Assembly: GCA_046760445.1 (NCBI GenBank)
Contig: JBHIEE010000002.1
Location: 1-62,058, forward strand
Length of the DNA: 62,058 bases
Direction: 5' to 3'
From: Candidatus Aminicenantia bacterium
GTDB lineage: Bacteria; Acidobacteriota; Aminicenantia; JdFR-78
Shown here one piece after another: positions 8,770 through 60,291 of this stretch; position 1 is the first letter of the stretch; each line of letters opens with the position of its first letter. The notes below the pieces were generated by a model that did no database searches, was not told where the DNA came from, and saw only the letters and a program-made list of their open reading frames with translations. Position numbers and translations under genes: made by a program.

Positions 8770-8823
8770 ATCTTCAAAACTTGTCTCTTCTTTTCTGCTT
8801 TCGTATAATATATTTATGAAAAA

Positions 8824-12947: not shown

Positions 12948-13052
12948 CAATTTATGTGGAGGTGAGGCCAATCTCGAGTACTTGAGAAAAAACCCTTGTC
13001 AGTATTGGGATTCTAAAGATGAAAACGCTTAAATTAATGAGGAGGTTTTAAA

Positions 13053-26537: not shown

Positions 26538-26549
26538 GGAGGGGAGAAA

Positions 26550-27890: not shown

Positions 27891-27904
27891 CGAGGAGGTG
27901 GATT

Positions 27905-29302: not shown

Positions 29303-29640
29303 CTCATTCCAAGTATTAATCCCACCATATACCCCTGGAGAGAATCAGCATAAGATAACCTGGTCTTAGGGACGCGATACCAATTAAAGCATTTTTTTAG
29401 TTATTACATTTGACTATTTTCTCTTTAAATATTATTATTTTATCAAATAAACAAAAGGAAACAACAGATTATGAAATGCTCCAAATGTCATTTTGATAAT
29501 CCCGCTGATACCCGCTTTTGCGGTAAGTGTGCAACCCCACTTCCTTCTCCAGATGAAATCTCTGTTTGCCATACTAAGACTCTCGAGACACCCATGAAAG
29601 ACTTAACCACAGGAATAACTTTGGCTGGAAAGTACAAGCT
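29303..29640 (+). repeat. Repeat R1: upstream region + promoter + Zn-ribbon 5' coding module shared with 43957-44295
   Basis: Aligned by eye with R2. The first ~120 nt have only a handful of mismatches. Similarity continues through the start codon and about 45 codons. Confidence 0.85.
29410..29438 (+). promoter_or_regulatory. sigma70-type promoter of kinase gene 1 (conserved in R2)
   Basis: TTGACT (29410-29415), 17 nt, TATTAT (29433-29438). Same boxes and spacing at 44064-44092. Confidence 0.5.
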
Positions 29641-31711
29641 CATTAAAAAACTGGGAGAAGGGGGCATGGGTGCCGTGTTTCTGGCCGAACAGACTGAGCC
29701 AGTCCGACGACGCGTTGCCCTTAAGATCATTAAACTAGGGATGGATACTAAACAGGTTGTGGCCCGCTTCGAGGCAGAGCGTCAGGCCCTCGCAGTAATG
29801 GACCACCCCAACATCGCCAAGGTCTACGATGGTGGAGCCACCCAGACAGGGCGTCCATACTTTGTGATGGAGCTTGTCCGTGGAATGCCTATTATTGAGT
29901 ACTGCGACAAACATAAACTCTCCATGCGCGAGCGGCTGGAGCTGTTCATTCCGATATGCCATGCGATCCAACATGCCCACCAGAAGGGTTTGATTCACCG
30001 TGATCTTAAACCCTCCAACGTGTTGGTGACGGTTCAGGACAATAAGCCTATTCCAAAGATAATCGACTTTGGCATCGCCAAGGCAATAGATCATCGCCTA
30101 ACCCAGCAGACACTCTACACAGAGCAGGGCCAGCTCATCGGGACACCTGAGTACATGAGTCCTGAACAAGCAGAGATGTCTGGTCTAGATGTGGATACGC
30201 GGACGGACATCTACTCCCTGGGAGTCATGCTCTATGAGCTATTGGTGGGAGTGCTGCCGTTTGACCCAAAAACACTCCGATCAGCTGGATTTGGCGAGAT
30301 TCAGCGAATCATTCGTGAAACTTATCCACCAAAGGCCAGCACTCGTCTAAGCAGCCTAGGCGATACCCAAAGCGTAATTGCTGAACACAGGCGGACAGAT
30401 CCGACTTCCCTTCATAGACAGCTTAAGGGCGACCTGGACTGGATTCTCATGAAGGCTATGGAAAAGGACCGTACACGCCGCTATGAAACCGCGAATGCTA
30501 TGGCCCTGGATATCCAGCGGCATATTAGCAACGAACCCGTCTTGGCTCGCCCTCCCAGCACCATGTACCAGCTACAAAAGCTAGTAGCGCGACACAAGAC
30601 TATATTTGCTTTTGTGGGATTACTGTTTGTGTTGCTTCTGGGATTCGCCATCACTATGACAGTGCAATCGGCCCGGATTGCCACCGAGCGTGATAGAGCC
30701 GATAGAGAAGCTACGAAGGCTATGGCTATCAACACGTTCCTAATGGAGACTTTAGGTTCAGCAAACCCGATTGAGGGAAGCAGCCGTGATATCACAGTAG
30801 TGGAGGCGCTGAAGACAGCAACTGAAAAAATCGCCGAGTCCTTTGTTGAACAACCAGAGGTAGAGGCAGAAGTCCGTCATACAATCGGGATTACATATCT
30901 AAGGCTCGGCCACTACGAGGACGCTGAGAAGTTGCTAAGGTCGGCATTAGAAATTTTTCAAAACACACTTGGTCGAGATCACCCGGATATAGCAGGACCG
31001 CTAACTAGTCTTGGTATATTAAGACATGAACTGGGTGATTATAATGAGGCTGAATCGCTTTATCGCGAGGCCCTGGCAATTAAACGCAAATTGCATGGAG
31101 ACGAAAATGAGGAAGTATTGAATATCTTGAATAACTTGGCTTTGTTAATTCAGGATAAAGGCGACATTGAGGCAGCCGAGCCACTATTCCGAAAGATCTT
31201 GGAAGTTGACCGTAAGCTATTGGGAAAGGAGCACCTTAATGTGGCAATTGACCTCAACAATCTTGGCAGGCTTCTTCAGAAAAAAGGGGATTATGAGTCA
31301 AGTGAGCTGCTGCTTCGGGAGGCAGTTACCATCCTCCGGAAGAAACAGCATCCATGGTTGTCCATAGGCTTAAGCAATCTGGGTGAGTTGCTGAATAAAA
31401 AGGGCGATTATAAGGCGGCCGAGCCGATTTTCGTCGAGGCTCTATCGATTGGGTTGAAGTATCTTGGTGATAAGAATCAGGATGTGGCTAAGCTTCGAAG
31501 CAGGTACGGTGCGTGTCTGATTAAGCTGAAACGTTTTGAAAATGCGGAAGAGCAACTCCTCGCTGCTCTCCCGGTCTTGCGCGATAGCCTGGGTGAACAG
31601 AATGAAAGGACTCAGCAGACGATCAGCTATCTTATCGAACTGTACGAAGCTTGGAGTAAAGAAGATAAGGCGGCTGAGTATCGAGCTCTTCTTGCCTCGC
31701 AAAGACAATAA
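29471..31711 (+). CDS. Hanks-type Ser/Thr protein kinase with N-terminal Zn-ribbon, one TM helix and C-terminal TPR (TPR_10/12-like) repeats
   Basis: CSKCHFDN...FCGKC; GEGGMGAVFLA, VALKII, HRDLKPSN, DFGIAK, SPEQ; TM IFAFVGLLFVLLLGFAITMTV; repeated LNNLA/LG--Y-EAE-L TPR units. The gene body is much GC-richer than its first ~170 nt. Confidence 0.9.
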   Translation: MKCSKCHFDNPADTRFCGKCATPLPSPDEISVCHTKTLETPMKDLTTGITLAGKYKLIKKLGEGGMGAVFLAEQTEPVRRRVALKIIKLGMDTKQVVARFEAERQALAVMDHPNIAKVYDGGATQTGRPYFVMELVRGMPIIEYCDKHKLSMRERLELFIPICHAIQHAHQKGLIHRDLKPSNVLVTVQDNKPIPKIIDFGIAKAIDHRLTQQTLYTEQGQLIGTPEYMSPEQAEMSGLDVDTRTDIYSLGVMLYELLVGVLPFDPKTLRSAGFGEIQRIIRETYPPKASTRLSSLGDTQSVIAEHRRTDPTSLHRQLKGDLDWILMKAMEKDRTRRYETANAMALDIQRHISNEPVLARPPSTMYQLQKLVARHKTIFAFVGLLFVLLLGFAITMTVQSARIATERDRADREATKAMAINTFLMETLGSANPIEGSSRDITVVEALKTATEKIAESFVEQPEVEAEVRHTIGITYLRLGHYEDAEKLLRSALEIFQNTLGRDHPDIAGPLTSLGILRHELGDYNEAESLYREALAIKRKLHGDENEEVLNILNNLALLIQDKGDIEAAEPLFRKILEVDRKLLGKEHLNVAIDLNNLGRLLQKKGDYESSELLLREAVTILRKKQHPWLSIGLSNLGELLNKKGDYKAAEPIFVEALSIGLKYLGDKNQDVAKLRSRYGACLIKLKRFENAEEQLLAALPVLRDSLGEQNERTQQTISYLIELYEAWSKEDKAAEYRALLASQRQ

Positions 31712-32041: not shown

Positions 32042-32452
32042 ATGAAGACATTAAAAATTACAAGTGATCTTACAGAGTTAGACAAAATAAGAAGTTTTTT
32101 GAAAAAAAATCTCAAGGGATTGAATATTTCAGATAAAGATTACTATAAAATTGAGCTATCACTACTGGAAATATGTGTAAATATCATCAGATATGCCTAT
32201 CCCAAGGAGAAAGGCGAGATCTCCTTTAAGACTTGGCATCGAGAGGGAAAGATATTTTTAGAAATAAGGGATAAGGGTATTCCTTTTGATCCAAGAAAAG
32301 CGAAGAAGCCTGATATAGGGGAAATCATCAGGAATGAGAAAAAAGGTGGATTAGGAATTCTCCTTTCCTCCAAGCTTATGGATGGATTTGATTATAAGCG
32401 AGAAAATAATCAGAATATTCTGACTATGTATAAGAAAATTAAAGAGGCTTGA
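32042..32452 (+). CDS. Anti-sigma-factor-type Ser kinase (RsbW/SpoIIAB-like HATPase_c_2)
   Basis: 136 aa. ELSLLEICVNIIRYAY (N box), IRDKGIPFDP (G1), GGLGILLSSKLMD (G2). Confidence 0.8.
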   Translation: MKTLKITSDLTELDKIRSFLKKNLKGLNISDKDYYKIELSLLEICVNIIRYAYPKEKGEISFKTWHREGKIFLEIRDKGIPFDPRKAKKPDIGEIIRNEKKGGLGILLSSKLMDGFDYKRENNQNILTMYKKIKEA

Positions 32453-32461: not shown

Positions 32462-33289
32462 TCAGTATAAGACTTTATCCTCGCCCTGCTTCTGGATAAG
32501 TTTGTCGATTTCCTTGAGTATCAGCTCCTTCCGAGTGAGGACAGCGTTAATTTCTTTATCTTTCAAATATTCCCCGACAATGTCTTTTATCAATTCAAAA
32601 TTCAAGGCCTTTATTTTCTCGACAAAAGCCCGGGGAAGCTCTCTCATAAGCTTTGGTCCTTCTTTATGTTTCTCGGTAAAGATGAGTTCTTTAGTGAATT
32701 TTTTGGAAGATCTGAAGGAACGGGAGTGGTCGATGAGGATCATACGCCAATCCTTAGTAATGAGAATATTCCCCGCATGACGGTCTTCGTTGCCAATCAA
32801 GTTATCGAAGGCTCGTTGCAAGTAGATTGCCCTATTCCAATAGAAGACTTTGTAAGAGGGAATTTTAATTTTTCTCTCATTTTTCTCCCTAAGTTTCATT
32901 TCATATTCCACCCATAATTGACAGGAGCCTCGATCTCCCTGAAATCTTCTTTCCACAGTGGGTGAGACCATATTCAGACCTAAATACTTGTCTAATCGGT
33001 AGGCAGCGATTTCCCATTTCCAGCCTTCAATATACCCTTTCATCCGGCCCTCTGGGTTCTTCCACAACGCATCTCTAGTGATGCCGTCTTTTTCCAGAGT
33101 CAGCACCCAGGGTTCAGTGACTGCCTCTCGCCCTTTCTTCTGGTAAAAACTTGTAATTTCTGCTGTTTTGAGGAATTCTTCCCATTTGGCTCTTTCTGCC
33201 AGTTCTTCTGGAGTGAACTGAGCTATGGATTGAAAATGAAAACCCAGGAAAATTATAAAGAAGAAAAAGGTAATGATTCTTTTATTCAT
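32462..33289 (-). CDS. Exported PI3K/PI4K-like (SCO1664/HipA-like fold) putative kinase, paralog A1
   Basis: Signal-like N-terminus MNKRIITFFFFIIFLGFHFQSIA|Q. EIAAYRLDKYLGLNMVSPTVERRFQGDRGSCQLWVE. GNEDRHAGNILI (DRHxxN catalytic-loop-like). ILIDHSRSF (DFG-position equivalent). Confidence 0.55.
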   Translation of the reverse strand: MNKRIITFFFFIIFLGFHFQSIAQFTPEELAERAKWEEFLKTAEITSFYQKKGREAVTEPWVLTLEKDGITRDALWKNPEGRMKGYIEGWKWEIAAYRLDKYLGLNMVSPTVERRFQGDRGSCQLWVEYEMKLREKNERKIKIPSYKVFYWNRAIYLQRAFDNLIGNEDRHAGNILITKDWRMILIDHSRSFRSSKKFTKELIFTEKHKEGPKLMRELPRAFVEKIKALNFELIKDIVGEYLKDKEINAVLTRKELILKEIDKLIQKQGEDKVLY

Positions 33290-33356
33290 CTTTTCCCCTC
33301 CTTCATAATTGAGATTTTCTGATTAATTTATCTTAAATATGGCATAAAATAAGACA

Positions 33357-34178
33357 TTAATACAAAACTTTATCTTCGCCTTTTTCTTTTATCATTTCAT
33401 CGATCTCCTCTAAAAGAAGCTGTTTGCGGATGAGAATAGCTTTTATCTCTTTGTCCTTCAAATAGGGACCCACAGCTTTTTTGATGTTATCAAAGTTCAA
33501 GGTTTTAATCTTTTCCACGAAAGCCCGAGGAAGTTTTCTGAATGGTTGAGGGCGACCTTCGGCATTCTTTCCAAAAAGGAGTTTCTCAGTGAATTTCTTA
33601 GAGGAACGGAAAGAACGGGAATGGTCGATGAGAATCATACGCCAATCCTTGGTATAGCGGATATTTTGCTGGGTTCGGTCTTCGTTGGCGATCAAACTGT
33701 CAAAAGCTCTCATTAAATACTTCATTTTGCTCCAATGGTCGGACTTAGTAGGAGGAATCTGAATTTTTTGTTCCATTCTTTCAAGATCGCTGTATTCATG
33801 CTCAACCCAAAGCTGAAGAGACCCTCTCTTCCCCCTAAATCTTCTCTCGACTGTGGGCGGAACCATATTTAACCCCAAAAGTTTATCCATCTCGTAAGCA
33901 GCGATTTCATACTGCCATCCTTCAAGGTAGCCCTTCTGGATACCGCTGGGGTTCTTCCATACACCATTTCTTTCTACATCTCCCTTTTTTAAGTAGACCT
34001 CAATCGGCTTTGTAACACCTTCCCTTATATCTTTGTATTTTACTATCTCTGCAGTTTTGAGGAATTTTTCTATTTCTTCCCTTTGGGCAATCTCAGCAGG
34101 AGTGAACTGTCCGTTGGCCTTATAGCTTTGAGCTATGAGAAGAAATAGAGTGATAATAAGAAAAATTTTTCGTTTCAT
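33357..34178 (-). CDS. Exported PI3K/PI4K-like putative kinase, paralog A2
   Basis: ORF 33357..34208. Start moved to ATG 34178 behind AAGGAG, giving MKRKIFLIITLFLLIAQSYKA|NGQ. Same blocks as A1 (EIAAYEMDKLLGLNMVPPTVERRFRGKRGSLQLWVE, ANEDRTQQNI, ILIDHSRSF). Confidence 0.55.
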   Translation of the reverse strand: MKRKIFLIITLFLLIAQSYKANGQFTPAEIAQREEIEKFLKTAEIVKYKDIREGVTKPIEVYLKKGDVERNGVWKNPSGIQKGYLEGWQYEIAAYEMDKLLGLNMVPPTVERRFRGKRGSLQLWVEHEYSDLERMEQKIQIPPTKSDHWSKMKYLMRAFDSLIANEDRTQQNIRYTKDWRMILIDHSRSFRSSKKFTEKLLFGKNAEGRPQPFRKLPRAFVEKIKTLNFDNIKKAVGPYLKDKEIKAILIRKQLLLEEIDEMIKEKGEDKVLY

Positions 34179-34260
34179 TTTTTTCTCCTTATTCGAAGCT
34201 TTCCCCAAAATATTTTGATAATAATATAACTCTATTTTTTTAGAAAATCAAATCAAAACA

Positions 34261-34289
34261 TTGACATGAATTTTTTTAATGTTATAAAT
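34261..34289 (+). promoter_or_regulatory. sigma70-type promoter upstream of the beta-propeller lipoprotein gene
   Basis: TTGACA (34261-34266), 16-17 nt, TATAAA/ATAAAT (34283-34289). Confidence 0.4.
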
Positions 34290-34395
34290 TTTCTTTTCGA
34301 GGTAAAGAAAAAGTGATTGCCTTAAAAATAAATAAATGATATTTGGCTTTTTTTAAATCTCTTGCTAATATAATTTATTTAAAGGAGAATAGAGA

Positions 34396-35214
34396 ATGAA
34401 AATAAGGTTTTTCTTGTTGAGTGCCTTAATCCTATTAGCCAATTGTTTGCCGGCAAAATATTCCCCAACAATTCGATTTCCTTATACATGGCTTGGAAAC
34501 ATTGACCAGCAAAATTTTGTCGAGCCTTCTGGTATTTGTTTTCATCCCCTTAGGAAAACTCTTTTTGTAGTGAGTGATGAGGGAAAGATTGTTGAGATGG
34601 AGACTGATGGAACGCCTGTTTTTAATTTAAAGATTCCTGGAGATTTGGAAGGAGTAACAGTTAACCCTCAATCAGGGCTTCTATACCTAATAATAGAGGG
34701 AGAGGACATCATCCTTGAGTTTGACCCTGATAAGAAAGAAGTCACCCGAAAATTTCCCGTTAATAGAGAATTCCAAGGCGATCCCAACTTTCTCCAAAAG
34801 CAGGAGAAGGACTATGATAACGGCATTGAATCCATTGCTTTTATCTCGAATGAAAATCATCCTGAAGGAGGAACTTTCTATGTGGGTAATCAAGACGATC
34901 CTCCTTGTATAATGGAAATTCTGGTTCCTCTAAAATCAAGCCAAGCTGAGACTGCGGAAGCTCGGATTACCAGGGTTTTACCCTTCAAAATGGATGACCC
35001 TGCAGCTATGTATTATGATTCTAAAGCAGGACTCTTAAATGTTGTCAGCGATGCAGATAACATCTTGGTGGAGATAACCCTGGAAGGAAAATTAGCCAAA
35101 GAATATGCTTTTCTTGGGGACAATCAGGAAGGACTTGCCAGGGATGAGGAAGGCTATTTGTACATTGCCCAAGATTCAGGGGGAATAATTAAGGTAAAAG
35201 ACCTGAGAAAATAA
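34396..35214 (+). CDS. SdiA-regulated (YjiK-like) beta-propeller lipoprotein
   Basis: Lipobox LLANC. Repeated EPSGI / DLEGV / GIESIA / NQEGLARD blades typical of the SdiA-regulated domain family. Confidence 0.6.
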   Translation: MKIRFFLLSALILLANCLPAKYSPTIRFPYTWLGNIDQQNFVEPSGICFHPLRKTLFVVSDEGKIVEMETDGTPVFNLKIPGDLEGVTVNPQSGLLYLIIEGEDIILEFDPDKKEVTRKFPVNREFQGDPNFLQKQEKDYDNGIESIAFISNENHPEGGTFYVGNQDDPPCIMEILVPLKSSQAETAEARITRVLPFKMDDPAAMYYDSKAGLLNVVSDADNILVEITLEGKLAKEYAFLGDNQEGLARDEEGYLYIAQDSGGIIKVKDLRK

Positions 35215-35223
35215 AAAAACAAA

Positions 35224-35387
35224 GCTCAAAATCCAAATGTCAAATGAATGATATTGAGATTTATTGAAACTCATTGAGATTCTTTGAGATTTGTTAAGAT
35301 TTTTAATCTTCCTCCTTCCTAGTCTCCCAATCTCCTATTCTCATAGTCTCAGATTTTTCATTTGATATTTGAGTTTTGTCATTTGAA
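35224..35387. repeat. Imperfect inverted repeat of doubled words, overlapping the 3' end of the TLC gene
   Basis: ctcaaaatccaaatgtcaaatgaa (left) versus ttcatttgatatttgagttttgtcatttgaa (right). Inner words attgagatt / tctcccaatctcc. Confidence 0.5.
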
Positions 35388-36800
35388 ATTTTCATTGGAT
35401 ATTTTTCTTTTAGCTGATAATTCTTTGTGCTCTCGCATAATAAAAATGCAAAGGATTATCCAAATCACTACAATTGCAACATTGAATTGAGCAACTCTTG
35501 CTATATTTTCTATATTGAAAGCGAGATAAGTTGTACCCAGGAAAACGAGCAAAGCTGATAGTACATCACCTGCGCGCCAAAAAAAAGTGTCTATGGCTGC
35601 TTTGGCTTTATATTTGGCCTCTCTTGAAGTTATGAGGAAAAGGGCATGTCGGGTTGCATTCATAATAGAGTAATCAGTACTATTTTCAAAGGTTTTAACC
35701 CATCTTACTATTATCAAGGTTGCTCCAAAAGCAATAAAGAAATATCCCCCAAGGGCAACTAAGGGGAGGATGAACAGGGCTCCTCTAACTCCAAACCACT
35801 TAAAAATTCGAGACATCAGAAAGAGCTGAATAACCGCGGCAATAAGATTAACAATAAAATAGAAATCTGCATAGAGTTTGCCGATAAGTTCTGGCTTATC
35901 TAAACCTCCTGTTTCACCAATCAGGATGGCTTTGTCGGCATTGTGGATGATTACCTTCCCTAATATGTATTCGCCATTGGTGTTGACGAAATTAAGCAAT
36001 AAAATAAGAAAAGCTATGTAAAGAAGGTATCGACTTTTAAAAACAAAACGAAACCCTCCTCCCTTTTTAAGGGGCTTCTCCTGAACTTTTTTTCTTGATT
36101 CATTCTCAGGACTGACTTTTGCTGCTTTATCCTCAGTTCTTTTTATCTCTCTTTTATGAATAATAAGGGTTAATAAAATGCAAATTCCCAGTATTCCTCC
36201 TGCAACCAGCATCAATTGATAGAGACCCAAGGACCCCACAAGCCAATTATGGATATTAGGCCCCCATAAAGCTCCAAAGTTTGCTCCGAACATAACTATA
36301 GGGAACAAACGTTTCCCTGCTTCATGGGTGTATAGATCGTTAGCAAAGCCCCAGAATTGAGCAATAACCATCAAGTTAAATATACCTATCCAAACAAAAA
36401 AGATTATTCCCATTGTTCCTAACGGAATTCCAATTAAATTTAAAACATAAAAGAGGACTAAGTTGGAAATGAAAAAGAGCGTTACCCAAGTGATTAATAT
36501 TTGCCGGGGGACTTTAGAAGCAATATCACTGAATATTTTAATCACAGGAATAAACAAGATTGCGATAGCGCCACTAAGATAACTTCTAAGTTCAGCTCCC
36601 TTTCCAGCTAAAATTAAGGCTTCCCTTATTGGCTTTAAAATGTAATAAGCGGTAAGAAGGAGAAAAATGTTGAAAGTTAAGAGAAAAGCAGTAGGAGCTT
36701 CACCGGGGTAGACCACTGTAAAAATTCTAAGAATTCTATGAGCAAATCCAGGCGATTTTTCATAAGTTCTCTTCATCCCTTCATTGTTGTAAGCTTTCAT
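35379..36800 (-). CDS. TLC family (ATP/ADP translocase-like, Npt1/Npt2-type) membrane carrier
   Basis: 473 aa, about 11-12 TM. LLLTAYYILKPIREAL and AQFWGFANDLYTHEAGKRLFPIVMFGANFG match the TLC signature (FW-FAN-----EAKR-YP-FG-GAN-G). Confidence 0.7.
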   Translation of the reverse strand: MKAYNNEGMKRTYEKSPGFAHRILRIFTVVYPGEAPTAFLLTFNIFLLLTAYYILKPIREALILAGKGAELRSYLSGAIAILFIPVIKIFSDIASKVPRQILITWVTLFFISNLVLFYVLNLIGIPLGTMGIIFFVWIGIFNLMVIAQFWGFANDLYTHEAGKRLFPIVMFGANFGALWGPNIHNWLVGSLGLYQLMLVAGGILGICILLTLIIHKREIKRTEDKAAKVSPENESRKKVQEKPLKKGGGFRFVFKSRYLLYIAFLILLLNFVNTNGEYILGKVIIHNADKAILIGETGGLDKPELIGKLYADFYFIVNLIAAVIQLFLMSRIFKWFGVRGALFILPLVALGGYFFIAFGATLIIVRWVKTFENSTDYSIMNATRHALFLITSREAKYKAKAAIDTFFWRAGDVLSALLVFLGTTYLAFNIENIARVAQFNVAIVVIWIILCIFIMREHKELSAKRKISNENFK

Positions 36801-36931
36801 TGAATCCCCCTTTCATACTTTCCCCAATGGATTTTTCATGAAAATTATTCTTGAATTAAATAAAACACCCTTTCCTATAAAAAGTCAAAATAAATTCTGC
36901 TATTTTTAAATATTATTGACCGAGAAAATTT

Positions 36932-37735
36932 TTAGGAGAAGAGGACGGATTCTTCTCCTTTTTCTTCTATTAATTGTTGAATCTTCTCTATGATAATATT
37001 TTTTCGTTCCAGTAATGCTTCAATTTCCTCGTCATTTAGATAGGGCTTTAGCTTGGCTCTAACGATTTTGCTGTCCAATTTCAGAAAGTTTTGATAAAGC
37101 TTCTTCGAACAACGGGTGATTTCGCAACCAGGGATTAATTCTGAGAATGGTGAAAAGGCCCCAGAAAAGTCAACCCTCCATACTTTCCAATCCTCCTTAT
37201 GGATTAAAATATCATCCGTGTCTATGCGCTCGTTGTAAGTTAAATTCTCAAAAATATTTATATCTTCCAGGGTGTTTTCAAAACCCTTAGGGTCAGGTGG
37301 TTCAATATTTCTTCTTTTTCGGTCATTTTCTGTTATGCAGCCTCCGATGAATAGCTGAAGGGATCCTTTTATGCCCTTTATTTCTCTTTCCACAACAGGG
37401 GGAACTCTATTTAAATCAAGGAGTTTATCCAGCTCATAAGCAGCAATTTCATATTTATAACTATCAGGGAGAAACGATGGTCTACGACGATTGATATACT
37501 TGAAGTATCCTCGCCGTGCTATTTTCCCATCATCCAGCTTTATTACCCAAGCTGCCATTCTTCCTCCCCGTGGGTCTATTTCAACAGAAACAATCTTAGC
37601 GGTTCTTAAGTAATTCTCCAGGTCTTTTTGCTTCAAATCTTTTTGATTGGCCATTTGGGATTTACAATTACACCAATTGCCAAAAATGAAGCAGATAAAA
37701 AACATGATGGTCAAAGCTCTCTTATTTTTCATCAT
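36932..37735 (-). CDS. Exported divergent PI3K/PI4K-like paralog A3 (catalytic motifs altered)
   Basis: ORF 36932..37762. Probable start MMKNKRALTIMFF... at 37735/37732, overlapping the stop of the upstream phosphatase gene. EIAAYELDKLLDLNRVPPVVEREIKGIKGSLQLFI is conserved, but NERIDTDDIL replaces NEDRHAGNIL and VDFSGAF replaces IDHSRSF. Confidence 0.5.
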   Translation of the reverse strand: MMKNKRALTIMFFICFIFGNWCNCKSQMANQKDLKQKDLENYLRTAKIVSVEIDPRGGRMAAWVIKLDDGKIARRGYFKYINRRRPSFLPDSYKYEIAAYELDKLLDLNRVPPVVEREIKGIKGSLQLFIGGCITENDRKRRNIEPPDPKGFENTLEDINIFENLTYNERIDTDDILIHKEDWKVWRVDFSGAFSPFSELIPGCEITRCSKKLYQNFLKLDSKIVRAKLKPYLNDEEIEALLERKNIIIEKIQQLIEEKGEESVLFS

Positions 37736-38822
37736 TAACCCCCCATACCGAGAATTTTCCATTCTCTATAATCAAAGCGCTTAGATTACCACCATAGGCA
37801 TCTGAAATGCCAGTATCAATTATCCAAATCCTTCCTTGAAACCGTCTCATATCCTTCATTGAAACACCTTTGCCCCTTTTTGGTGTATGAGCTATTACCA
37901 TATATTTGGCGTCGAGGTTGGATAAGATTCTACCAATTTCTTTTTTTAAAACATCTTCATCCTTCTGAGCTAACTCCCGATACCAGAGGGGTCCATTGCT
38001 GTCAAAAACAATTTCAGGTTTAAAAGGAATTTTAGGCGGCTGAGAGCGCCTTCCTGCTCTGCGCAGGAAATTTAGTTCCTTGCGCAAGAGATTATTTATA
38101 TCCTCCAGCTTCCATTTAGAAAATTCTTCGCTTATTCCTCCATGGGCAAATACAATATCATTGATTTTAATTACGGCATTGTGTTTAAGAATCCATATTC
38201 CATATTTTTCATTAAAGGTGTTTATATACTTTCTTCGAGCTCCCCCGTCGTTTCTCATTATTTCTCTCCAAAACTCCTCTAAATTGATATTTAAAGAAAT
38301 ATCCGGATCCGTCTCTTTGAGGGCTTTCTGTCCTATTCTTTCTCTAAATTCTTTTTCTCTCTTCTCTCTATATTTATCAGGAAGAAAGGAAACAAATTGG
38401 TCTACAGTAACATAGCCAACATAGTCGAAGGCTATGCCTGTAATATTCATTTCCTCATGGTTACCGATCAACACATGAACTTTGCCCCCTGCCTCTTCAG
38501 CTTCTTTCTCCAATCTTATCAATAGGTCAAAAACTTTCTTTGCATCAGGTCCTCTATCCATGATATCGCCGGTTTGTACTAGATGAGTTTTCCCTCCTGT
38601 CCAATGAAGTTCCTCATTGATTAATTTTATTCCTTTTAAGATTTTTACAAAATTCTTATAATCGCCGTGTATATCTCCTATAGCGACAATTTTTTCAATG
38701 CCGGTCCATACACACTGTATGCTGGCGGCATAGAGATTGGTAAGAAAGGTGAAGATAAAGAAAGTGAAAATTAATTGAGTTTTAATTTTTCTCATTGGGT
38801 TTTTAATGGAGTTGTTCTTCAT
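37722..38822 (-). CDS. Exported PPP-family (calcineurin-like) metallophosphoesterase / Ser-Thr phosphatase-like protein
   Basis: Hydrophobic N-terminus QLIFTFFIFTFLTNLYA|AS. GDIHGD, GDIMDRG, GNHE, FAHGG and VIAHTP motifs. Confidence 0.75.
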   Translation of the reverse strand: MKNNSIKNPMRKIKTQLIFTFFIFTFLTNLYAASIQCVWTGIEKIVAIGDIHGDYKNFVKILKGIKLINEELHWTGGKTHLVQTGDIMDRGPDAKKVFDLLIRLEKEAEEAGGKVHVLIGNHEEMNITGIAFDYVGYVTVDQFVSFLPDKYREKREKEFRERIGQKALKETDPDISLNINLEEFWREIMRNDGGARRKYINTFNEKYGIWILKHNAVIKINDIVFAHGGISEEFSKWKLEDINNLLRKELNFLRRAGRRSQPPKIPFKPEIVFDSNGPLWYRELAQKDEDVLKKEIGRILSNLDAKYMVIAHTPKRGKGVSMKDMRRFQGRIWIIDTGISDAYGGNLSALIIENGKFSVWGVNDEK

Positions 38823-38943
38823 AGTCTTTTCCTATGTTTCCAAGCAATATCTTTTTATTCTTTCCTTCGACTTTAATACTGTTCACTAATATTTATAATA
38901 GAGTAATGATAAGGGATGTCAAGAATTAAAGACATAACTTATC

Positions 38944-38972
38944 TTGACAAGATGAGTTTTCTAATATATATT
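38944..38972 (+). promoter_or_regulatory. sigma70-type promoter of the STAS/TLC-HEAT/PP2C operon
   Basis: TTGACA (38944-38949), 17 nt, TATATT (38967-38972). About 270-nt leader before 39244. Confidence 0.5.
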
Positions 38973-39243
38973 TTTGAAGGAAAATACAGAAAATACGCAA
39001 ATCATGAGTTTTTTCGAAATTACAGTCTATCTCTCTTTTTTCAAAAATAAACTTATGCACTGGCTCTTAAATAAGATTTTTGAAGAAGAAAGATAAGCAG
39101 GATTTAGATCGAAAAAGACGGAAAAAAAAGAAAATTCCAGGTAATCGAAGAATCGGAAAAGGAGGAGAGGGGGATTATCCTATTGATTCAAACAAAACCA
39201 GAGAAGTAGCCAATAGTAAGATTCTAAAAGAGTAAGGGAAGAA

Positions 39244-39591
39244 ATGGTAATAAATACAAGAGAAAAAAACGATATCGTTATTTTTGACATTGAGGGAGAA
39301 ATCAAAAGATCGGAGATAACCGATGTAACTCTACACCAGATCGTTAAAGATCAATTAGATACCGGCAAAAGGAATATACTCTTAAATTTTGAGAAAGTTG
39401 AACTTATTGATAGCTTTGGAGTAGGAGAGATTTTAGCCAGCTACATTTCCACTCACAATTTAGGGGGAAAGCTGAAGCTCGCAAAAATATCAAAAAAACT
39501 TTACCTTGTCTTTCAAGTCACAATGCTTACTAATGTTTTTGAAATATTCGATGATGAGGAAGTGGCATTAAAAAGCTTTTTTAAAGAATAG
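39244..39591 (+). CDS. STAS domain anti-sigma-factor antagonist (RsbV/SpoIIAA-like)
   Basis: 115 aa. ...VELIDSFGVGEILASY contains the phosphorylatable Ser position (DS-G). Confidence 0.8.
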   Translation: MVINTREKNDIVIFDIEGEIKRSEITDVTLHQIVKDQLDTGKRNILLNFEKVELIDSFGVGEILASYISTHNLGGKLKLAKISKKLYLVFQVTMLTNVFEIFDDEEVALKSFFKE

Positions 39592-39624
39592 TCCACGGTA
39601 CTATCCTTCTTAAAGAGTCATTCT

Positions 39625-42111
39625 ATGGTGAAAAATCGCTTTTATAAAATTTTGTCGCGGATTGTAGAGATCAAACCAGGCGAGGAAATCATATCTATCT
39701 TCCTCTTTTCTTATTTTTTTTTAATCACCGCTCCGTACAACATTATTAAATCCCTTAGGAATGCGAGTTATTTAGACACGCTGGGAGCAAAAGGGCTTCC
39801 CCTTGCTTATTTATTGACAGCCGCTCTAATAGGCTTTGTTGTTGCTTTTCATTCCAAGCTTCAAGTCAAAATTCCAAGACATCTTTTAATAATATCCAGC
39901 CTCATTTTTTTCATTCTCACTTGTTTCCTTTTCTGGTTGCTTTTCCCCTATGGGTGGAGTTGGTTGCCACTCGCTTATTGGATATGGGCGAATATTTTTA
40001 TTGTAGTTCTAGTGACTCAATTCTGGGTTTCAGTTAACGATGCATTCAACCCGAGGGAGGCAAAAAGACTGATTGGCTTCTTTGGCAGTGGAGGAATATT
40101 AGGAGGTATAGTAGGAGGAGAGGTGACAGGTTTTTTAGCTAAGTCTAAGGTATCTTACGATCTTCTACTTGTAGCTTCTGGAATGCTCATCGCCTGTGTT
40201 TTTGTCGTAAATTATATATTTATTTGGCAGGCAAAAAGACAATCTATCACTGATAAAGCAGATAAAAAAGATAAAGAAAGAGGGGGAGAACTGCCTAAAG
40301 TAGGCTTTAAAGATTGCTTCGATACTGTAAGAAAACACTATTATTTAAAGCTCCTGGCAGCAGTAGTCACAACAACATTGATTGTTTCGACTCTTATTGA
40401 TTTTCAGTTTAATAGTGTAGTCGAAAGCACGCTGTCTGTAAGGAATAATCTGACAGCTTTTTTTGGACATTTTAATGCAGGATTGATGGTTCTTCCTTTT
40501 TTTCTTCAACTTTTGATGACGAGCAGCCTTATCAAACGCTATGGCATTCGTTTTACCTTATTGCTTTACCCCATGGTATTGCTCCTTTGTTCTTCGGGAA
40601 TTGCCGCTTTCCCGATTATTTATTTTGCTATACTCATTAAAGGCAGCGATAAAAGCCTCTCTTATTCCCTTAACCAGTCTGTCCGGGAGCTCCTTTATAT
40701 TCCTATTTCACCAGAGCTTAAGTACAAAGCAAAGATATTCATCGATATGTTTCTCAATAGATTTGCCAAAGGCATCGGAGCAGTGATACTTATGATACTT
40801 TTATACTTTCATCTTGGAATCCAATATGTGAGCCTTGCTTCTGCTGTTTTTATTTTTGTGTGGGTTATTCTCAATCTAAAGGTAAGTAAGGAATACATCA
40901 ATACTGTTAAGCAGAAATTAGAGGTGAAGTGGGAGCGGGCGGATAGATTAGTGGCTGAAAAAGTGGATGTTGATTATACAAAATTAGTCTTTGACACCTT
41001 AGAGAGCAAAAATCGAAGTTCAGTCTTGTATGCCATGCATCTCTTCGATTTGATAAAGCAAGATAAACTCACTCCTGAACTAAAAAAGATAATCTCATAT
41101 AAATCTGATGAAATAAGAGCGAGTTCCATGGATTCGCTTCTAGAATTGGATGGAGAGGTTTTAATCCCTGAAATTGATGATGCTTTGGACGATGAAAGCC
41201 TTGATGTCCAGGTTAAGGAAATCATGTCTTTGGATGTTTACCAAGAACTGATGAAAGAGCACATCAATAAAATCGTAAGTGAGGAAAGCAAGGAGGCAGA
41301 GGTTTCCAGAATGGAAGCAGCTAAGGTTCTGGGAATGATGGAGCCAACTTCCCCCCTCATCCATAACCTTAGTAAACTCCTTAGGGATGAATCGCCCGAA
41401 GTGATTAGGTACGCTGTTGAGAGTGCCGGAAAGCTAAAAAGGAGGGAGTTCGTTCCTCTTATCATTCAGCAATTGAGTAAGCCCTCCACCCAGGAAGTCG
41501 CCAGTAAAGCTTTAGTAGAATATGGAGTTAAAATTATAGGGACACTAAAAGATTATTTGGGGGATCCGGAAGAAGATATTCGATTGCGAAAGGCCATCCC
41601 AGACATCTTAGCCCGAATAGGCACCCAAAGAGTAGGAGATTTATTAGCTTTAGAATTAAAAAAGGAAATAAGGGATGTGGAATCTGAAATCATCGAAGCT
41701 ATGTATAAGATGAAATCGAAAAATCCTCAAATTCATTTTCAGGAAAAGATAGTATTGTCTGAAATAATTCTGAAAATAAAAGAAAGTTATTTGATTTTGA
41801 TGGAAATGCATGATTTAAAAGCAGATAAGAAAAAAGCGTTTTCGGCTACAGACTTAGAGAATAATTTAGCTCAACCTCTCAAACATATTTTTGAACTGTT
41901 AAGTCTTATTTATCCCCAAGAAGATGTCATTAAAGCCTATCAAAATATTTGTACTGGAACAAAAAAGGCAATAGACTATTCTATCGAACTTCTTGACAAT
42001 ATGTTAAAGAAAGAGATAAAAGAGGTTCTCCTTCCCTTGATTGATGATATTCCTTTTAAAGATAAGGTTAGGAAATGCAGAAAATTGCTTAAGACTTTGG
42101 AAAAAGTTTAA
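39625..42111 (+). CDS. TLC-like membrane carrier fused to a C-terminal HEAT/armadillo-repeat domain
   Basis: N-terminal ~440 aa with multiple TM segments and TQFWVSVNDAFNPREAKRLIGFFGSGG (TLC signature). C-terminal ~380 aa helical repeats (LLRDESPEVIRYAVESAGKLK, LGDPEEDIRLRKAIPDILARIG). Confidence 0.7.
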   Translation: MVKNRFYKILSRIVEIKPGEEIISIFLFSYFFLITAPYNIIKSLRNASYLDTLGAKGLPLAYLLTAALIGFVVAFHSKLQVKIPRHLLIISSLIFFILTCFLFWLLFPYGWSWLPLAYWIWANIFIVVLVTQFWVSVNDAFNPREAKRLIGFFGSGGILGGIVGGEVTGFLAKSKVSYDLLLVASGMLIACVFVVNYIFIWQAKRQSITDKADKKDKERGGELPKVGFKDCFDTVRKHYYLKLLAAVVTTTLIVSTLIDFQFNSVVESTLSVRNNLTAFFGHFNAGLMVLPFFLQLLMTSSLIKRYGIRFTLLLYPMVLLLCSSGIAAFPIIYFAILIKGSDKSLSYSLNQSVRELLYIPISPELKYKAKIFIDMFLNRFAKGIGAVILMILLYFHLGIQYVSLASAVFIFVWVILNLKVSKEYINTVKQKLEVKWERADRLVAEKVDVDYTKLVFDTLESKNRSSVLYAMHLFDLIKQDKLTPELKKIISYKSDEIRASSMDSLLELDGEVLIPEIDDALDDESLDVQVKEIMSLDVYQELMKEHINKIVSEESKEAEVSRMEAAKVLGMMEPTSPLIHNLSKLLRDESPEVIRYAVESAGKLKRREFVPLIIQQLSKPSTQEVASKALVEYGVKIIGTLKDYLGDPEEDIRLRKAIPDILARIGTQRVGDLLALELKKEIRDVESEIIEAMYKMKSKNPQIHFQEKIVLSEIILKIKESYLILMEMHDLKADKKKAFSATDLENNLAQPLKHIFELLSLIYPQEDVIKAYQNICTGTKKAIDYSIELLDNMLKKEIKEVLLPLIDDIPFKDKVRKCRKLLKTLEKV

Positions 42112-42163: not shown

Positions 42164-43840
42164 ATGTCGAAACTATTTGTTTATCCGAAAAAGGGGGAGG
42201 TATTTTGTTTTCCTCTCAAAAAAGAAAAAATATCTATCGGGCGTTCCGCTGACAATGACATCTCCACTCCTGATCCATTTTGTTCAGGGCATCATGCCTT
42301 CATTTATCCTTCGGAAGTGGGATATGTGGTTCGAGATAATAACAGCAAAAATGGAACCTTTGTTAATGGCAAAAAAATTCAATCCGAGACCGAACTCAAG
42401 AAAGGAGATGAAATCCTTATTGGCTCAACAAGGATTGTCTTTGATAAGGAACTTTCGACAAATATTGAAGTTGTGGAGATTCCATCCCCCTCTGCAAATG
42501 TAAATACCATAATTCATCTTAAAGAGATTCTGAAGAAGCCCGATATCGAGACAACTTTGAAAGCTAATGCAACACCTTTTGATTTGGAAAGGATCAAATC
42601 AGAACATAAAGCTTTTTCCGTGTTAAGTGAAGTCAGTAAAACTCTTATTTCCCATAGGCCCCCAGAAGAACTCTTAGACCATATCATGGATTTAATTTGC
42701 CAGAATCTCCCTATGGACAGAGGGATTCTGATGCTAAAAGAAGGAAATCCTGCTCAATTAATTCCAAAAGTTGTTCGTATCAATAACAAGAACCTTAAGA
42801 ATCAGAAAATTCAGGTGAGTCAAAGCATAATCAATATGGCTGTTAATAAGCATTCGTCAGTCCTCACTTATGATGCCCAAGCTGATCCTCGTTTCAGGAC
42901 TAAGGAGAGCGTTATTAAATCCAACATCCATTCGGCAATGTGTGTTCCTTTATGGAATAACAAGGAAATTATAGGAATAGTCTATTCAGACCGGATATAT
43001 CTCCTTGACCGGTTTTCGGATGAAGATCTAAAACTGTTGACTCTCTTATCCAATTTGGCTGCGATCAAGATCGAAAATGCTAAGCTTATCGAGCAAGCCA
43101 TCGAGAAAGAAAAGATTGAAAAAGAGCTTGCGTTGGCTGCCCAGATTCAAAAAGACTTTCTTCCTAAAGAAGATCCTGAGTGCGAAAATTTTAAAATCGC
43201 TGGCTCCAACATCTCTTGTTATCATGTTGGTGGGGATTATTATGATTTTATCACTATCGATCCTTGTCGCTTAGGGATTATTATTGCTGATGTTTCTGGG
43301 AAAGGAATTAGTGCTTCCCTTCTCATGGCTTCTTTAAGAGCAGCTCTTCATTCAGAGGTTCATCCTCAATACAAGTTAGAGGAAATGGCGGCTAAATTGA
43401 GCAATTTCGTTCACCGCAGTTCTGCCCAAAATCGTTTTATAAGTTTTTTCTTTTGCGAATTAAACAATAAAAGTGGCGAGCTAAGATATATCAATGCTGG
43501 ACATAATCCTCCCCTTATCCTCGATAGAAAAGGGAAAATTCATCGTTTGAAAAGCTGCGGCTTGTGCTTGGGTATGTTTCCTTCTGTTACTTATGAAGCG
43601 AAAAAAGTCACTTTAAAAGCCGGTGATATGGCCCTTCTTTTTACAGATGGAATCACCGAAAGTCGGAATAAAGAAAAAGAAGAATTTAATGAGAAAAGAC
43701 TCATAAACCTCCTTAAAAAGCATTCTAAATTACCTGCCCAGAAACTTCTGGAAAAAATTTTTGATGAAATCAATTTATTCACCTCTGGTGCTGACCAAAT
43801 GGACGATATGACTCTCGTCATCATTAAAAGAATCTCTTAG
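42164..43840 (+). CDS. FHA-GAF-PP2C (SpoIIE/RsbU-type) phosphatase
   Basis: FHA (ISIGRSADNDI...NSKNGTFVNGKKI), GAF (DRGILML...), SpoIIE-type PP2C (GGDYYDF, IADVSGKG, NAGHNPP, FTDGITE, DDMTLV). Confidence 0.85.
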   Translation: MSKLFVYPKKGEVFCFPLKKEKISIGRSADNDISTPDPFCSGHHAFIYPSEVGYVVRDNNSKNGTFVNGKKIQSETELKKGDEILIGSTRIVFDKELSTNIEVVEIPSPSANVNTIIHLKEILKKPDIETTLKANATPFDLERIKSEHKAFSVLSEVSKTLISHRPPEELLDHIMDLICQNLPMDRGILMLKEGNPAQLIPKVVRINNKNLKNQKIQVSQSIINMAVNKHSSVLTYDAQADPRFRTKESVIKSNIHSAMCVPLWNNKEIIGIVYSDRIYLLDRFSDEDLKLLTLLSNLAAIKIENAKLIEQAIEKEKIEKELALAAQIQKDFLPKEDPECENFKIAGSNISCYHVGGDYYDFITIDPCRLGIIIADVSGKGISASLLMASLRAALHSEVHPQYKLEEMAAKLSNFVHRSSAQNRFISFFFCELNNKSGELRYINAGHNPPLILDRKGKIHRLKSCGLCLGMFPSVTYEAKKVTLKAGDMALLFTDGITESRNKEKEEFNEKRLINLLKKHSKLPAQKLLEKIFDEINLFTSGADQMDDMTLVIIKRIS

Positions 43841-44041: not shown

Positions 44042-44295
44042 AGCATTTTTTTAGTTATTAAATTTGACTATTTTCTTATTAAATAATATTATATTGTCAA
44101 ACAAGCAAAAGGAACAATGAATTATGAAATGCCCTAAATGTCATTTTGAAAATCCCGCTGATACCCGTTTTTGCAACAACTGTGCAACACCACTTCAACC
44201 CTCAGAGGAAATCTCTATTTCTCAGACGAAGACTCTCCAAATACCCATGAAAGAGATAACCATTGGAAGCACTTTTGCTGGAAGGTACCAAGTCA
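43957..44295 (+). repeat. Repeat R2 (second copy of the promoter + Zn-ribbon module)
   Basis: See R1. Offset between copies is 14,654 bp, same orientation. Confidence 0.85.
44064..44092 (+). promoter_or_regulatory. sigma70-type promoter of kinase gene 2
   Basis: TTGACT (44064-44069), 17 nt, TATTAT (44087-44092). Confidence 0.5.
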
Positions 44296-60267: not shown

Positions 60268-60291
60268 TAGACCTCCTTTCTTTAAAATGAG

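Follow-up and report, generated by a model that had tools for sequence, protein, structure and literature searches.

A conserved bacterial gene cluster linking Fam20-like kinase-fold proteins with predicted export signals to a Shelph-type phosphatase and NTT-family carriers

Introduction

Can a bacterium carry out ATP-dependent phosphorylation outside its cytoplasm? The periplasm is generally held to be ATP-free, and ATP-dependent kinases lie outside the accepted picture of the cell envelope. The question is raised by a gene cluster at positions 32462-42111 of a 62,058-nt stretch of DNA (hereafter the window; forward strand of contig JBHIEE010000002.1, assembly GCA_046760445.1) from a Candidatus Aminicenantia bacterium. 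An original prediction, made from the letters of the window, described three exported PI3K/PI4K-like kinase paralogs (A1, A2 and A3), an exported PPP-type phosphatase, an SdiA-regulated-type lipoprotein and two TLC-type carriers (here TLC1 and TLC-HEAT), and proposed that exported ATP feeds phosphorylation of envelope or extracellular targets. All seven open reading frames (ORFs) are present, and the motifs quoted for them were located in their translations. We find that A1, A2 and A3 are soluble kinase-fold proteins, that they belong to a large, uncatalogued family and that their nearest solved relatives are the Fam20 proteins. We are confident that the genes of the cluster form a real functional module; what this module does is a harder question, which we approach below from the fold of the A proteins, their catalytic residues and export signals, the phosphatase, the gene neighborhoods and the carriers.

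Results

Fold and relatives of the A proteins

We compared A1, A2 and A3 with each other and with known kinase families. The three proteins are indeed paralogs, with A1 sharing 57% identity with A2 and 34% with A3, and A1 and A2 carry the blocks EIAAY..LD..LGLNMV.PTVERRF.G.RGS.QLWVE, NEDRHAGNIL (A1), NEDRTQQNI (A2) and ILIDHSRSF as they had been quoted. A1 matches the PI3_PI4_kinase model PF00454 just below its gathering threshold (25.2 bits, E 1.8e-5; threshold 27.1), and A2 and A3 do not match it. The suggested kinship with SCO1664-type proteins is visible in TIGR03843 (45.5 bits and E 5.7e-12 for A1, 44.0 bits for A2, 22.4 bits for A3), yet these scores stay well under the curated cut-off of 172.4. 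The Pfam Fam20C model PF06702 gives 19.0 bits with A1, 14.6 bits with A2 and no match with A3 (threshold 26.8). A1 and A2 thus show sub-threshold matches to several atypical-kinase models, namely PI3_PI4_kinase, ABC1, Fam20C and HipA_2 (18.5 bits against a cut-off of 27), all Pfam scores lying below their cut-offs, and the match to HipT is insignificant (E 0.37). Among 64 members of the family, 25 have threshold or sub-threshold matches to PF00454, 17 match HipA_2 weakly and 12 match PF06702 at E <= 0.01, with one relative, P0124, reaching 29.4 bits in the latter. By curated thresholds, A1-A3 would thus be counted as members of neither Fam20 nor PI4K type II.

No model in Pfam covers the A family. 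A profile of A1, A2 and A3 collected 4074 clusters (at 50% identity) at E <= 1e-3 and 568 at E <= 1e-30; in the sources consulted by lookup, members are annotated only as "hypothetical protein" or, if fused, as "metallophosphoesterase". Some relatives contain tandem A domains: P0124 (671 amino acids) has two, and in P0163 (898 amino acids) a pair of them comes after a phosphatase domain, mirroring the separate paralog genes of the window.

Searched as a single sequence against the PDB, A1 returned insignificant matches only. A profile built from 64 diverse A-family members matched FAM20A (E 2.5e-12), the Fam20B xylosylkinase (E 3.9e-9), Fam20C (E 1.4e-8) and the Caenorhabditis elegans Golgi casein kinase (E 3e-6), followed by the type II PI4 kinases PI4K2B (E 1.9e-4) and PI4K2A (E 1.7e-3). 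The aligned blocks comprise the alphaC region, the catalytic loop, the DFG-position segment and a long C-terminal helix. We next modeled A1 with AlphaFold2. A first model, calculated from 21 mostly close homologs, had a predicted local distance difference test (pLDDT) score of 69.5 and was low in the catalytic region, and Foldseek placed it near PI3K/Vps34 (TM-score 0.35-0.46); it was replaced by a better model, from an alignment of the 64 sequences, which has a pLDDT of 93.5 and a predicted TM-score (pTM) of 0.89. This second model adopts a kinase fold, and its five best Foldseek matches in the PDB are all Fam20 structures (E 8.6e-9 to 1.7e-8, query TM-score (TMq) 0.58-0.64), followed by PI4KII-beta (TMq 0.46-0.49) and then by PI3Ks. 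The kinase fold proposed for the A proteins is thus upheld by model, structure search and profile, but the nearest family is Fam20, and type II PI4K comes second.

The likeness to Fam20 extends over the alphaC segment EIAAY.LD..L....VPPTV, the catalytic loop FD.LIGN.DRH, the LxxD..RxF motif and the C-terminal helix. The A proteins differ from Fam20 in that they share only ~15% identity with it and have ~250 mature residues, making them much smaller than Fam20 catalytic domains. In addition, the residue five positions past the catalytic Asp is Asn in the A family, as in PI3K/PI4K and classical kinases, whereas it is Glu in Fam20 (DRHHYE). The second-closest group, PI4KII together with SCO1664, shares with A1 the DRHxxN catalytic loop and the DFG-type Asp.

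Catalytic residues

We analyzed the conservation of putative active-site residues in 187 aligned A-family domains. A1 contains a full catalytic set (K77, E93, D169, N174 and D187). A2 is also complete, with its Lys-Glu pair, the D..N of the catalytic loop (NEDRTQQN) and the DFG-position Asp (LIDHS). A3 lacks the catalytic Asp, reading NERIDTDDIL where A1 has NEDRHAGNIL, followed by VDFS, a loss that the original prediction had missed. Across the alignment, the DFG-position Asp is found in 98% of the domains, the catalytic Asp in 80%, the Asn five residues past it in 78% (Asp in 20%) and the alphaC Glu in 71% (Asn in 19%). In a soil-Acidobacteria clade, both A paralogs have Gln in place of the beta3 Lys and Asn in place of the alphaC Glu, and retain the D..N and the DFG Asp. 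The A3-type domains without a catalytic Asp (A3 itself, P0145, P0215 and the fusion at metagenome locus L150) are the ones attached to the phosphatase. A3 is thus probably a pseudokinase partnered with the phosphatase, and judged by these residues the A family appears to mix competent kinases and probable pseudokinases, like the Fam20 family, where a degenerate paralog is likewise paired with intact ones.

Export signals

We assessed export with a home-made heuristic (not SignalP), which asks for a Lys/Arg-containing n-region, a hydrophobic h-region and no later membrane segment. The signal-like starts noted for A1-A3 and for the phosphatase show Sec-type signal-peptide features by this measure. 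A1, A2, A3, the phosphatase and the SdiA-regulated-type protein all fit it; the RsbW-like, STAS and PP2C proteins encoded in the same cluster (see below) do not. The N-terminus of A1 reads MNKRIITFFFFIIFLGFHFQSIA followed by QF, and a small-residue site precedes the Gln in both intact paralogs (SIA before QF in A1, ANG before QF in A2). The pattern is present in 106 of 130 full-length A-family representatives under strict criteria. Many of the other 24 start hydrophobic, and several fall short only of the charged start, consistent with mis-called starts. The phosphatase-A fusions described below carry the pattern as well. These sequences are most simply read as having an N-terminal export signal throughout the family, which would parallel that of Fam20. 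PI4KII differs here, being cytoplasmic and free of a signal peptide, as presumably are the SCO1664 proteins. The window encodes outer-membrane genes by domain annotation (OEP, an RND pump, a TonB-dependent receptor and an outer-membrane protein barrel), and the organism therefore has a periplasm.

The phosphatase and its tie to the A domains

The assignment of the phosphatase to the PPP type was borne out by a match to the Metallophos model PF00149 (E 8e-15). Bacterial-type PPP enzymes are characterized by the motifs GDxHG, GDxxDRG, GNH(E/D) and (I/L/V)D(S/T)G (PMC535813), and the protein has all four, since next to the GDIHGD, GDIMDRG and GNHE already quoted we found IIDTG. Its closest solved relative is the cold-active protein-tyrosine phosphatase of Shewanella (2z72, 1v73 and 2zbm, E 1.4e-33 to 4e-33), the match extending across both subdomains, with Rhilph coming next (5vjv, E 0.0019). 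Given these relatives and the four motifs, we classify the phosphatase by sequence as a Shelph. Substrate specificity is not predictable (PMC535813). Weak NCBIfam matches include Ap4A hydrolases, ApaH and PrpE.

The phosphatase gene is translationally coupled to A3: the two reading frames overlap by 14 nt, the phosphatase stop codon falling within A3, and a G-rich stretch is located just upstream of the A3 start. Elsewhere in the family the two can be one protein. Of 10 long A-family members tested, eight combine a Metallophos domain at the N-terminus and an A domain at the C-terminus in one polypeptide, and one-ORF fusions of the phosphatase with an A3-type domain occur in L150, P0145 and P0215. 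Most fusions have DRNxGN and IDH[ST]R, and with them every residue expected of an active kinase. Such fusions represent Rosetta-stone evidence that phosphatase and A domain work together, and we regard this sequence evidence as strong. We found no report of a Shelph-kinase architecture in the literature.

Gene linkage across lineages

We investigated whether the A-family, phosphatase and TLC genes remain together in other genomes. A scan of species-level genomes with A1 gave 80 best loci, all of them from Aminicenantes; the counts below refer to the 49 whose sequence extends at least 6 kb upstream of A1. Across Aminicenantes, A1 orthologs share 62-81% identity, and the cluster order is conserved at 45-80% amino-acid identity: PP2C, one or two TLC-HEAT genes and STAS on one strand; phosphatase, A3 and TLC1 on the other; then the propeller gene; A2 and A1; and RsbW. 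Phosphatase and A3 are adjacent in 39 of the 49 loci, a TLC gene lies within 7 kb in 34, and A2 is directly upstream of A1 in 34. Variants include a phosphatase-A3-A1 arrangement without a carrier and A1 alone beside a gene for a Ser/Thr kinase with TPR repeats (STK-TPR). Many Aminicenantes have two tandem TLC-HEAT genes downstream of STAS (L001 1-3922, L007, L008, L033, L041, L043, L060 and L069), where the window has one.

In metagenomes we collected 80 further loci with an alignment of the phosphatase-A fusion, that is without reference to carriers, and annotated them with hidden Markov models made from Aminicenantes orthologs; 18 of them, with at least 3 kb on both sides, are informative. 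A TLC-family gene was found in 35 of the 80 loci (9 of the 18), usually 0-141 nt from the phosphatase gene, and an A domain, fused or nearby, in 51 (14 of the 18). The soil-Acidobacteria clade contributes most of the TLC linkage, with the orders A-x-phosphatase-TLC-HEAT or, in L165, phosphatase-TLC-HEAT-A-small ORF-A. In Steroidobacteraceae (Gammaproteobacteria), the 3' end of the fusion gene overlaps a convergent TLC1-type gene (L089, L096, L167 and L169), and one of three genomes checked (L168) has no carrier nearby. On other contigs, of 62-70% G+C, TLC-HEAT is encoded upstream of the phosphatase in L097 and L155 and is separated from it by a few genes in L085, and L160 is a further high-G+C locus with TLC-HEAT. 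Overall, contigs on which a TLC gene adjoins span 36-70% G+C, with at least five arrangements across several lineages, which argues that the linkage is real though not universal. If, as we assume, a genome has few TLC genes, adjacency by chance would be expected in ~0.1% of cases, compared with the 44-50% observed.

The co-occurrence of A-family, phosphatase and TLC genes thus reaches beyond the source genome, to soil Acidobacteria and to Steroidobacteraceae, and includes fusions. The TLC association is real in at least two phyla, and it is not obligatory. The outcomes that the original prediction had named as fatal to it, a different fold for A1-A3, missing signal peptides, no co-occurrence in other genomes or a non-nucleotide substrate shown for the TLC homologs, did not turn up.

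Several neighboring genes caught our attention. A Crp-like regulator predicted to bind cyclic nucleotide monophosphates (cNMPs) is divergent beside the Steroidobacteraceae phosphatase-A fusion, with a Guanylate_cyc-TPR gene further upstream (L167 4668-7951, L168 2765-7869), and a response-regulator cyclase lies ~3.3 kb upstream of the fusion in L169 (3513-4676). In soil Acidobacteria, small conserved ORFs of 119-163 amino acids occur near the A genes (L105 6933-7409; L117 11411-11881; L165 11005-11364 and 12581-12952; L101 6614-6976), some with a weak DUF5666 match and others with none; they may represent further components of the module. In L085, a PF01663 phosphodiesterase/nucleotide pyrophosphatase gene (E 8e-40) is located directly upstream of the fusion, and an Omp85-family gene between the fusion and TLC-HEAT (7790-9808, 12387-13745).

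The carriers

Both carriers are of the TLC type as predicted, with PF03219 giving 45.3 bits (E 7e-12) for TLC1 and 69.1 bits (E 4e-19) for TLC-HEAT at a threshold of 21. The signature proposed for them is present in both, but TLC1 reads FWGFAND....EAGKRL rather than EAKRL. In TLC-HEAT, a protein of 828 residues, the TLC match covers residues 120-334 and a HEAT_2 match residues 561-629 (E 5e-10). TLC-HEAT aligns with solved NTT structures from transmembrane segment (TM) 4 to TM12 (9j3n, E 5e-15; Arabidopsis NTT1 (AtNTT1), 9j3j, E 9e-10), sharing the blocks FW..N....EAKR...FG.G and S.(K/R)E..YIP....K.K.K..ID; TLC1 reaches E 0.09 in the same comparison. A crude hydropathy map shows ~12 segments and Lys/Arg-rich N-terminal, central-loop and C-terminal-tail regions in the carriers, from which we infer that the HEAT domain faces the cytoplasm. 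By sequence, the two carriers are very distant from characterized ATP/ADP translocases.

Four charged residues matter for ATP/ADP exchange in the Arabidopsis carrier, K155, E245, E385 and K527 (PMC4256464). We mapped these positions in AtNTT1 numbering, with alignment fragments serving as the canonical sequences and the older mutagenesis data as reference. The window TLC-HEAT has L/N/D/K and TLC1 has R/G/E/D (K/G/E/D in most Aminicenantes orthologs), the soil-Acidobacteria TLC-HEAT has L/K/G/D, and the Steroidobacteraceae TLC has R/S/(D/E)/D.

The architecture of TLC-HEAT, an NTT domain with a C-terminal HEAT domain, is that of the NTT-HEAT clade, to which we liken it by architecture alone. 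NTT-HEAT fusions are monophyletic, widespread in free-living bacteria and uncharacterized (Major, Embley and Williams 2017; PMC5381601), and a literature search with the term returned no reported function. Genes for cNMP-binding proteins are found beside or fused to NTT-HEAT genes (PMC5381601). Together with the Steroidobacteraceae regulators described above, this makes a cyclic-nucleotide connection possible.

Accessory genes

The features of the region are collected in Table 1. The SdiA-regulated-type protein was correctly recognized: it matches PF06977 (E 1.5e-13) and the Phytase-like model PF13449 (31.1 bits against a cut-off of 27.6) and is probably a lipoprotein. This beta-propeller gives weak PDB matches to designed propellers and to YjiK, which provide no functional lead. 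It is present in 25 of the 49 Aminicenantes loci and in none of the 80 metagenome loci, and we consider it accessory.

Table 1. Genes in and around the cluster, with window coordinates
Feature	Position	Strand	Basis or remark
Receptor-type Ser/Thr kinase: zinc-ribbon-like N-terminus, Pkinase, one TM, C-terminal TPR	29471-31711	+	Membership uncertain
RsbW-like anti-sigma-factor kinase (HATPase_c_2), convergent with A1	32042-32452	+	PF13581
A1, predicted exported kinase-fold protein, Fam20/PI4KII-like A family	32462-33289	-	ORF, motifs, AlphaFold2/Foldseek, family profile
A2, predicted exported A1 paralog	33357-34178	-	ORF, motifs; ORF extendable to TTG at 34208
SdiA-regulated/phytase-like beta-propeller, probable lipoprotein (LLANC)	34396-35214	+	PF06977, PF13449
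TLC1, ~12-TM TLC/NTT-family carrier without HEAT domain	35379-36800	-	PF03219, MFS_1
A3, predicted exported A-family paralog, probable pseudokinase	36932-37735	-	ORF, motifs
Predicted exported Shelph-type PPP phosphatase	37722-38822	-	PF00149, PPP motifs, PDB profile match
STAS-domain anti-sigma-antagonist-like protein, directly upstream of TLC-HEAT	39244-39591	+	PF01740
TLC-HEAT, NTT-family carrier (residues 1 to ~430) with predicted cytoplasmic HEAT-repeat domain	39625-42111	+	PF03219, HEAT_2
FHA-GAF-PP2C (SpoIIE-type) phosphatase, third gene of the STAS/TLC-HEAT operon	42164-43840	+	SpoIIE, FHA, GAF
Second receptor-type Ser/Thr kinase with TPR, flanks the cluster	44124-46898	+	Membership uncertain

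The TLC1 gene follows those for the phosphatase and A3 on their strand. Interleaved and conserved with the cluster are three genes absent from the original prediction. The RsbW-like protein matches PF13581 (E 8e-27), with RsbW-specific models being weak and far below cut-off. The STAS protein matches PF01740 (E 2e-10) and, slightly below cut-off, TIGR00377 (50.4 versus 53.45 bits), and contains the serine motif LIDSFGVG. The third protein combines SpoIIE (PF07228, E 1e-52), FHA (E 1e-20) and GAF (E 2e-14) domains. By domain content they appear to supply the components of a partner-switching module, a kinase, a STAS protein with its Ser and a PP2C phosphatase. The order STAS, TLC-HEAT, PP2C is conserved in Aminicenantes loci, and PP2C is found beside TLC-HEAT in L017, L035, L037, L042, L074, L078 and L150. 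Among 53 Aminicenantes loci, 38 have the RsbW gene no more than 3.5 kb downstream of A1. Two loci, L074 and L078, are rearranged, and there A1 is followed by an unbroken block of the RsbW, PP2C, TLC-HEAT and STAS genes.

The two flanking Ser/Thr kinases start with a zinc-ribbon-like CxxC...CxxC motif and have one membrane segment and a C-terminal TPR region. In many other loci, among them the lone-A1 loci L003, L004 and L019, a similar STK-TPR gene adjoins A1 or the phosphatase. The first of the two kinases (29471-31711) is a possible associated sensor.

Elsewhere in the window, three tandem amidohydrolase paralogs with signal-peptide-like N-termini are located immediately upstream of the first Ser/Thr kinase (24909-29197). 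A protein with a signal-peptide-like N-terminus encoded on the minus strand (58588-60300) matches peptidase families M2 (angiotensin-converting-enzyme type) and M3. Positions 11226-14888 encode a B12-binding radical-SAM protein and an aldehyde:ferredoxin oxidoreductase, consistent with an anaerobic lifestyle. As for a riboswitch or other RNA clue to a ligand, two tRNAs were the only matches at gathering threshold across the window, and no RNA family matched within 31.5-44.2 kb at E <= 1. We also considered a defense or toxin-antitoxin system; PADLOC gave no match, and the export signals argue against it.

Discussion

We tentatively favor, as a serious but still uncertain possibility, that the region represents a conserved envelope module for phosphorylation and dephosphorylation outside the cytoplasm. 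In this mechanism, A1 and A2 would phosphorylate a periplasmic, outer-membrane or extracellular substrate, which may be a protein, a glycan or a lipid, and the phosphatase would reverse this modification. A3 would act as a non-catalytic partner of the phosphatase, as the pseudokinase Fam20A partners Fam20C. The TLC carriers would swap nucleotides over the inner membrane, ATP moving out and ADP or AMP moving in, and would thus supply ATP to an ATP-free compartment, as ER/Golgi ATP importers do for Fam20C. In Aminicenantes, the HEAT domain may represent the output of RsbW/STAS/PP2C partner switching, such that the carrier would be gated from inside the cell, and the FHA domain of the PP2C protein together with the flanking receptor Ser/Thr kinases could provide a route for envelope feedback. 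ATP export feeding extracytoplasmic phosphorylation is plausible.

Several of our observations weigh against this interpretation. The position aligned with the ATP-binding beta3 Lys is variable (Lys 49%, Arg 26%, Gln 18%, His 5%). The soil-Acidobacteria clade with Q/N-type A proteins is also the one with the tightest TLC-HEAT linkage, so that carrier linkage does not track obviously ATP-competent kinases. No linked carrier keeps the full charged tetrad, and the NTP/NDP exchanger model TIGR00769 scores TLC-HEAT at 71.7 and TLC1 at 43.8 bits, neither reaching its cut-off of 387.2. Sequence comparison cannot predict the substrate range of NTTs, and where two microsporidian NTTs depart from three of the four residues, a matching residue is found no more than 3-4 positions away (PMC4256464); the incomplete tetrad therefore weakens, without excluding, adenine-nucleotide transport. 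No TLC gene is present in the flanks examined of nine of the 18 informative loci outside Aminicenantes and of several Aminicenantes loci, indicating that the carrier is either not obligatory or encoded elsewhere. Finally, the export heuristic is of limited specificity, as it flags 15 of 32 other ORFs in the window, several of which look exported or membrane-bound. The variable beta3 Lys, the Q/N-type A proteins in the most tightly linked clade and the incomplete tetrad are the strongest restraints.

If the carriers do not export ATP, they may import. The phosphatase, with or without nucleotide-binding kinase-fold partners, would then process extracellular nucleotides or organophosphates, and the TLC proteins would take up the products, much as characterized NTTs of intracellular bacteria do with nucleotides, with no ATP efflux and no regulatory phosphorylation. 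All characterized NTTs are importers or exchangers serving uptake (PMC5381601, PMC4256464), and the weak matches of the phosphatase to Ap4A hydrolases, ApaH and PrpE, the nucleotide pyrophosphatase gene directly upstream of the L085 fusion and the phytase-like propeller of the Aminicenantes cluster would all fit such a role. The variable beta3 and alphaC residues would likewise suit binding over catalysis in some clades, but a mere binder would not need the catalytic Asp (80%), the Asn (78%) and the DFG Asp (98%) that the family has kept. Moreover, the phosphatase is firmly placed among Shelph enzymes, its nearest solved relative being a protein-tyrosine phosphatase and not a nucleotidase, and a phosphate-stripping enzyme would destroy the nucleotide substrates of the importer. 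To our knowledge, none of these lineages is known to contain energy parasites. We thus consider scavenging unlikely.

A dephosphorylation-only module is, in our view, similarly improbable. Here, the A proteins would be Fam20A-like subunits that regulate or target the phosphatase, and the carrier substrate would not be ATP but a substrate or product of the phosphatase, a cyclic nucleotide or an anion. A3 and some fusion A domains (P0145, P0215, L150) are indeed tied to the phosphatase and lack the catalytic Asp, and we take the paired Lys-to-Gln and Glu-to-Asn changes of the soil clade to resemble the alphaC change of the pseudokinase Fam20A. In the carriers the canonical charged tetrad is missing, and NTT relatives carry NAD and SAM in addition to nucleotides (references in PMC5381601). 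Crp-like regulators and cyclases are encoded upstream of Steroidobacteraceae fusions, and proteins with cyclic-nucleotide-binding domains accompany NTT-HEAT carriers elsewhere (PMC5381601). Against this stands the finding that A1, A2 and most fusions retain all residues of an active kinase, and that three paralogs persist in Aminicenantes, of which two are intact and strongly conserved (62-81% identity for A1).

It is very unlikely that the kinase-like proteins and the phosphatase are secreted effectors, acting on other organisms with the ATP of the target, next to a TLC carrier used for unrelated nucleotide uptake. Many bacterial atypical kinases are host-directed (PMC9758233), and NTTs are classically tied to host-dependent lifestyles (PMC5381601). 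However, the proteins show only Sec-type signals, the cluster has no linked genes for a secretion system, the lineages with the module come from metagenomes of sediment and soil, and the tight operonic coupling of carrier and phosphatase would be left unexplained. We give hardly any credence to the notion that the genes are neighbors by ancestry or chance, without functional coupling: the best 80 genome matches of A1 are all from Aminicenantes, so that gene order could be inherited, and half of the informative distant loci have no TLC gene, but the phosphatase-A fusions provide Rosetta-stone evidence, TLC genes adjoin the phosphatase in varied orders and orientations in Acidobacteria, in Steroidobacteraceae and on contigs of 36-70% G+C, and the rearranged loci L074 and L078 keep the units together.

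Returning to extracytoplasmic phosphorylation, we compared the module with known systems. The closest working likeness is phosphorylation in the eukaryotic secretory pathway, where Fam20 acts in an ATP-importing lumen; here, a PPP phosphatase is built in, and genes for Fam20 have no such link to PPP phosphatases or to NTT carriers. The carrier is of the NTT family, which we take to be unlike the ER/Golgi ATP carrier. A 2022 kinome survey describes FAM20 as eukaryote- or metazoan-specific and groups it with bacterial CotH (PMC9758233), and the Fam20 reviews that we found make no mention of prokaryotic homologues. CotH and HipA share the protein-kinase-like superfamily with the A proteins. CotH was not matched in our Pfam, PDB-profile or Foldseek searches of the A family, and HipA toxins are cytoplasmic and have an antitoxin partner, none being encoded beside the A genes. 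The phosphatase differs from known Shelph enzymes in that its gene is coupled to or fused with a kinase-fold domain and linked to NTT carriers. The reported neighbors of NTT-HEAT carriers are cNMP-binding proteins (PMC5381601), and the papers that we found on these carriers report no link to exported kinase-like proteins and a phosphatase. The partner-switching set resembles RsbW/RsbV/RsbU in having a HATPase_c_2 kinase, a STAS protein with the DS serine motif and a SpoIIE-type PP2C, but no sigma factor gene is adjacent, and STAS and PP2C bracket the HEAT carrier, which suggests a non-transcriptional output. We found no description of exported bacterial Fam20-like proteins, of periplasmic kinases or of a link to NTT-HEAT carriers in the literature, to which our access was incomplete, so that a prior description is possible.

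There is a substantial chance that the module represents something categorically new for bacteria, should ATP-dependent phosphorylation in the periplasm hold. It appears rather unlikely, though worth stating, that several diderm lineages use Fam20-like kinases, a Shelph phosphatase and ATP-exporting NTTs for periplasmic or surface phosphorylation, as a counterpart of Golgi Fam20C and as the sister or source of metazoan Fam20. The very large family of exported kinase-fold proteins, most of which have their catalytic residues intact, its repeated phosphatase fusions and its repeated carrier linkage make a periplasmic nucleotide supply for covalent modification directly testable, and the module would be experimentally tractable if cultured Steroidobacteraceae or soil Acidobacteria carry it. 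Our findings also offer a first hint of function for two uncharacterized groups, the NTT-HEAT carriers of free-living bacteria and the bacterial Shelph phosphatases. The A proteins are prokaryotic relatives closer to Fam20 than any that we found in the literature, and they bear on the origin of the secretory-pathway kinases of animals.

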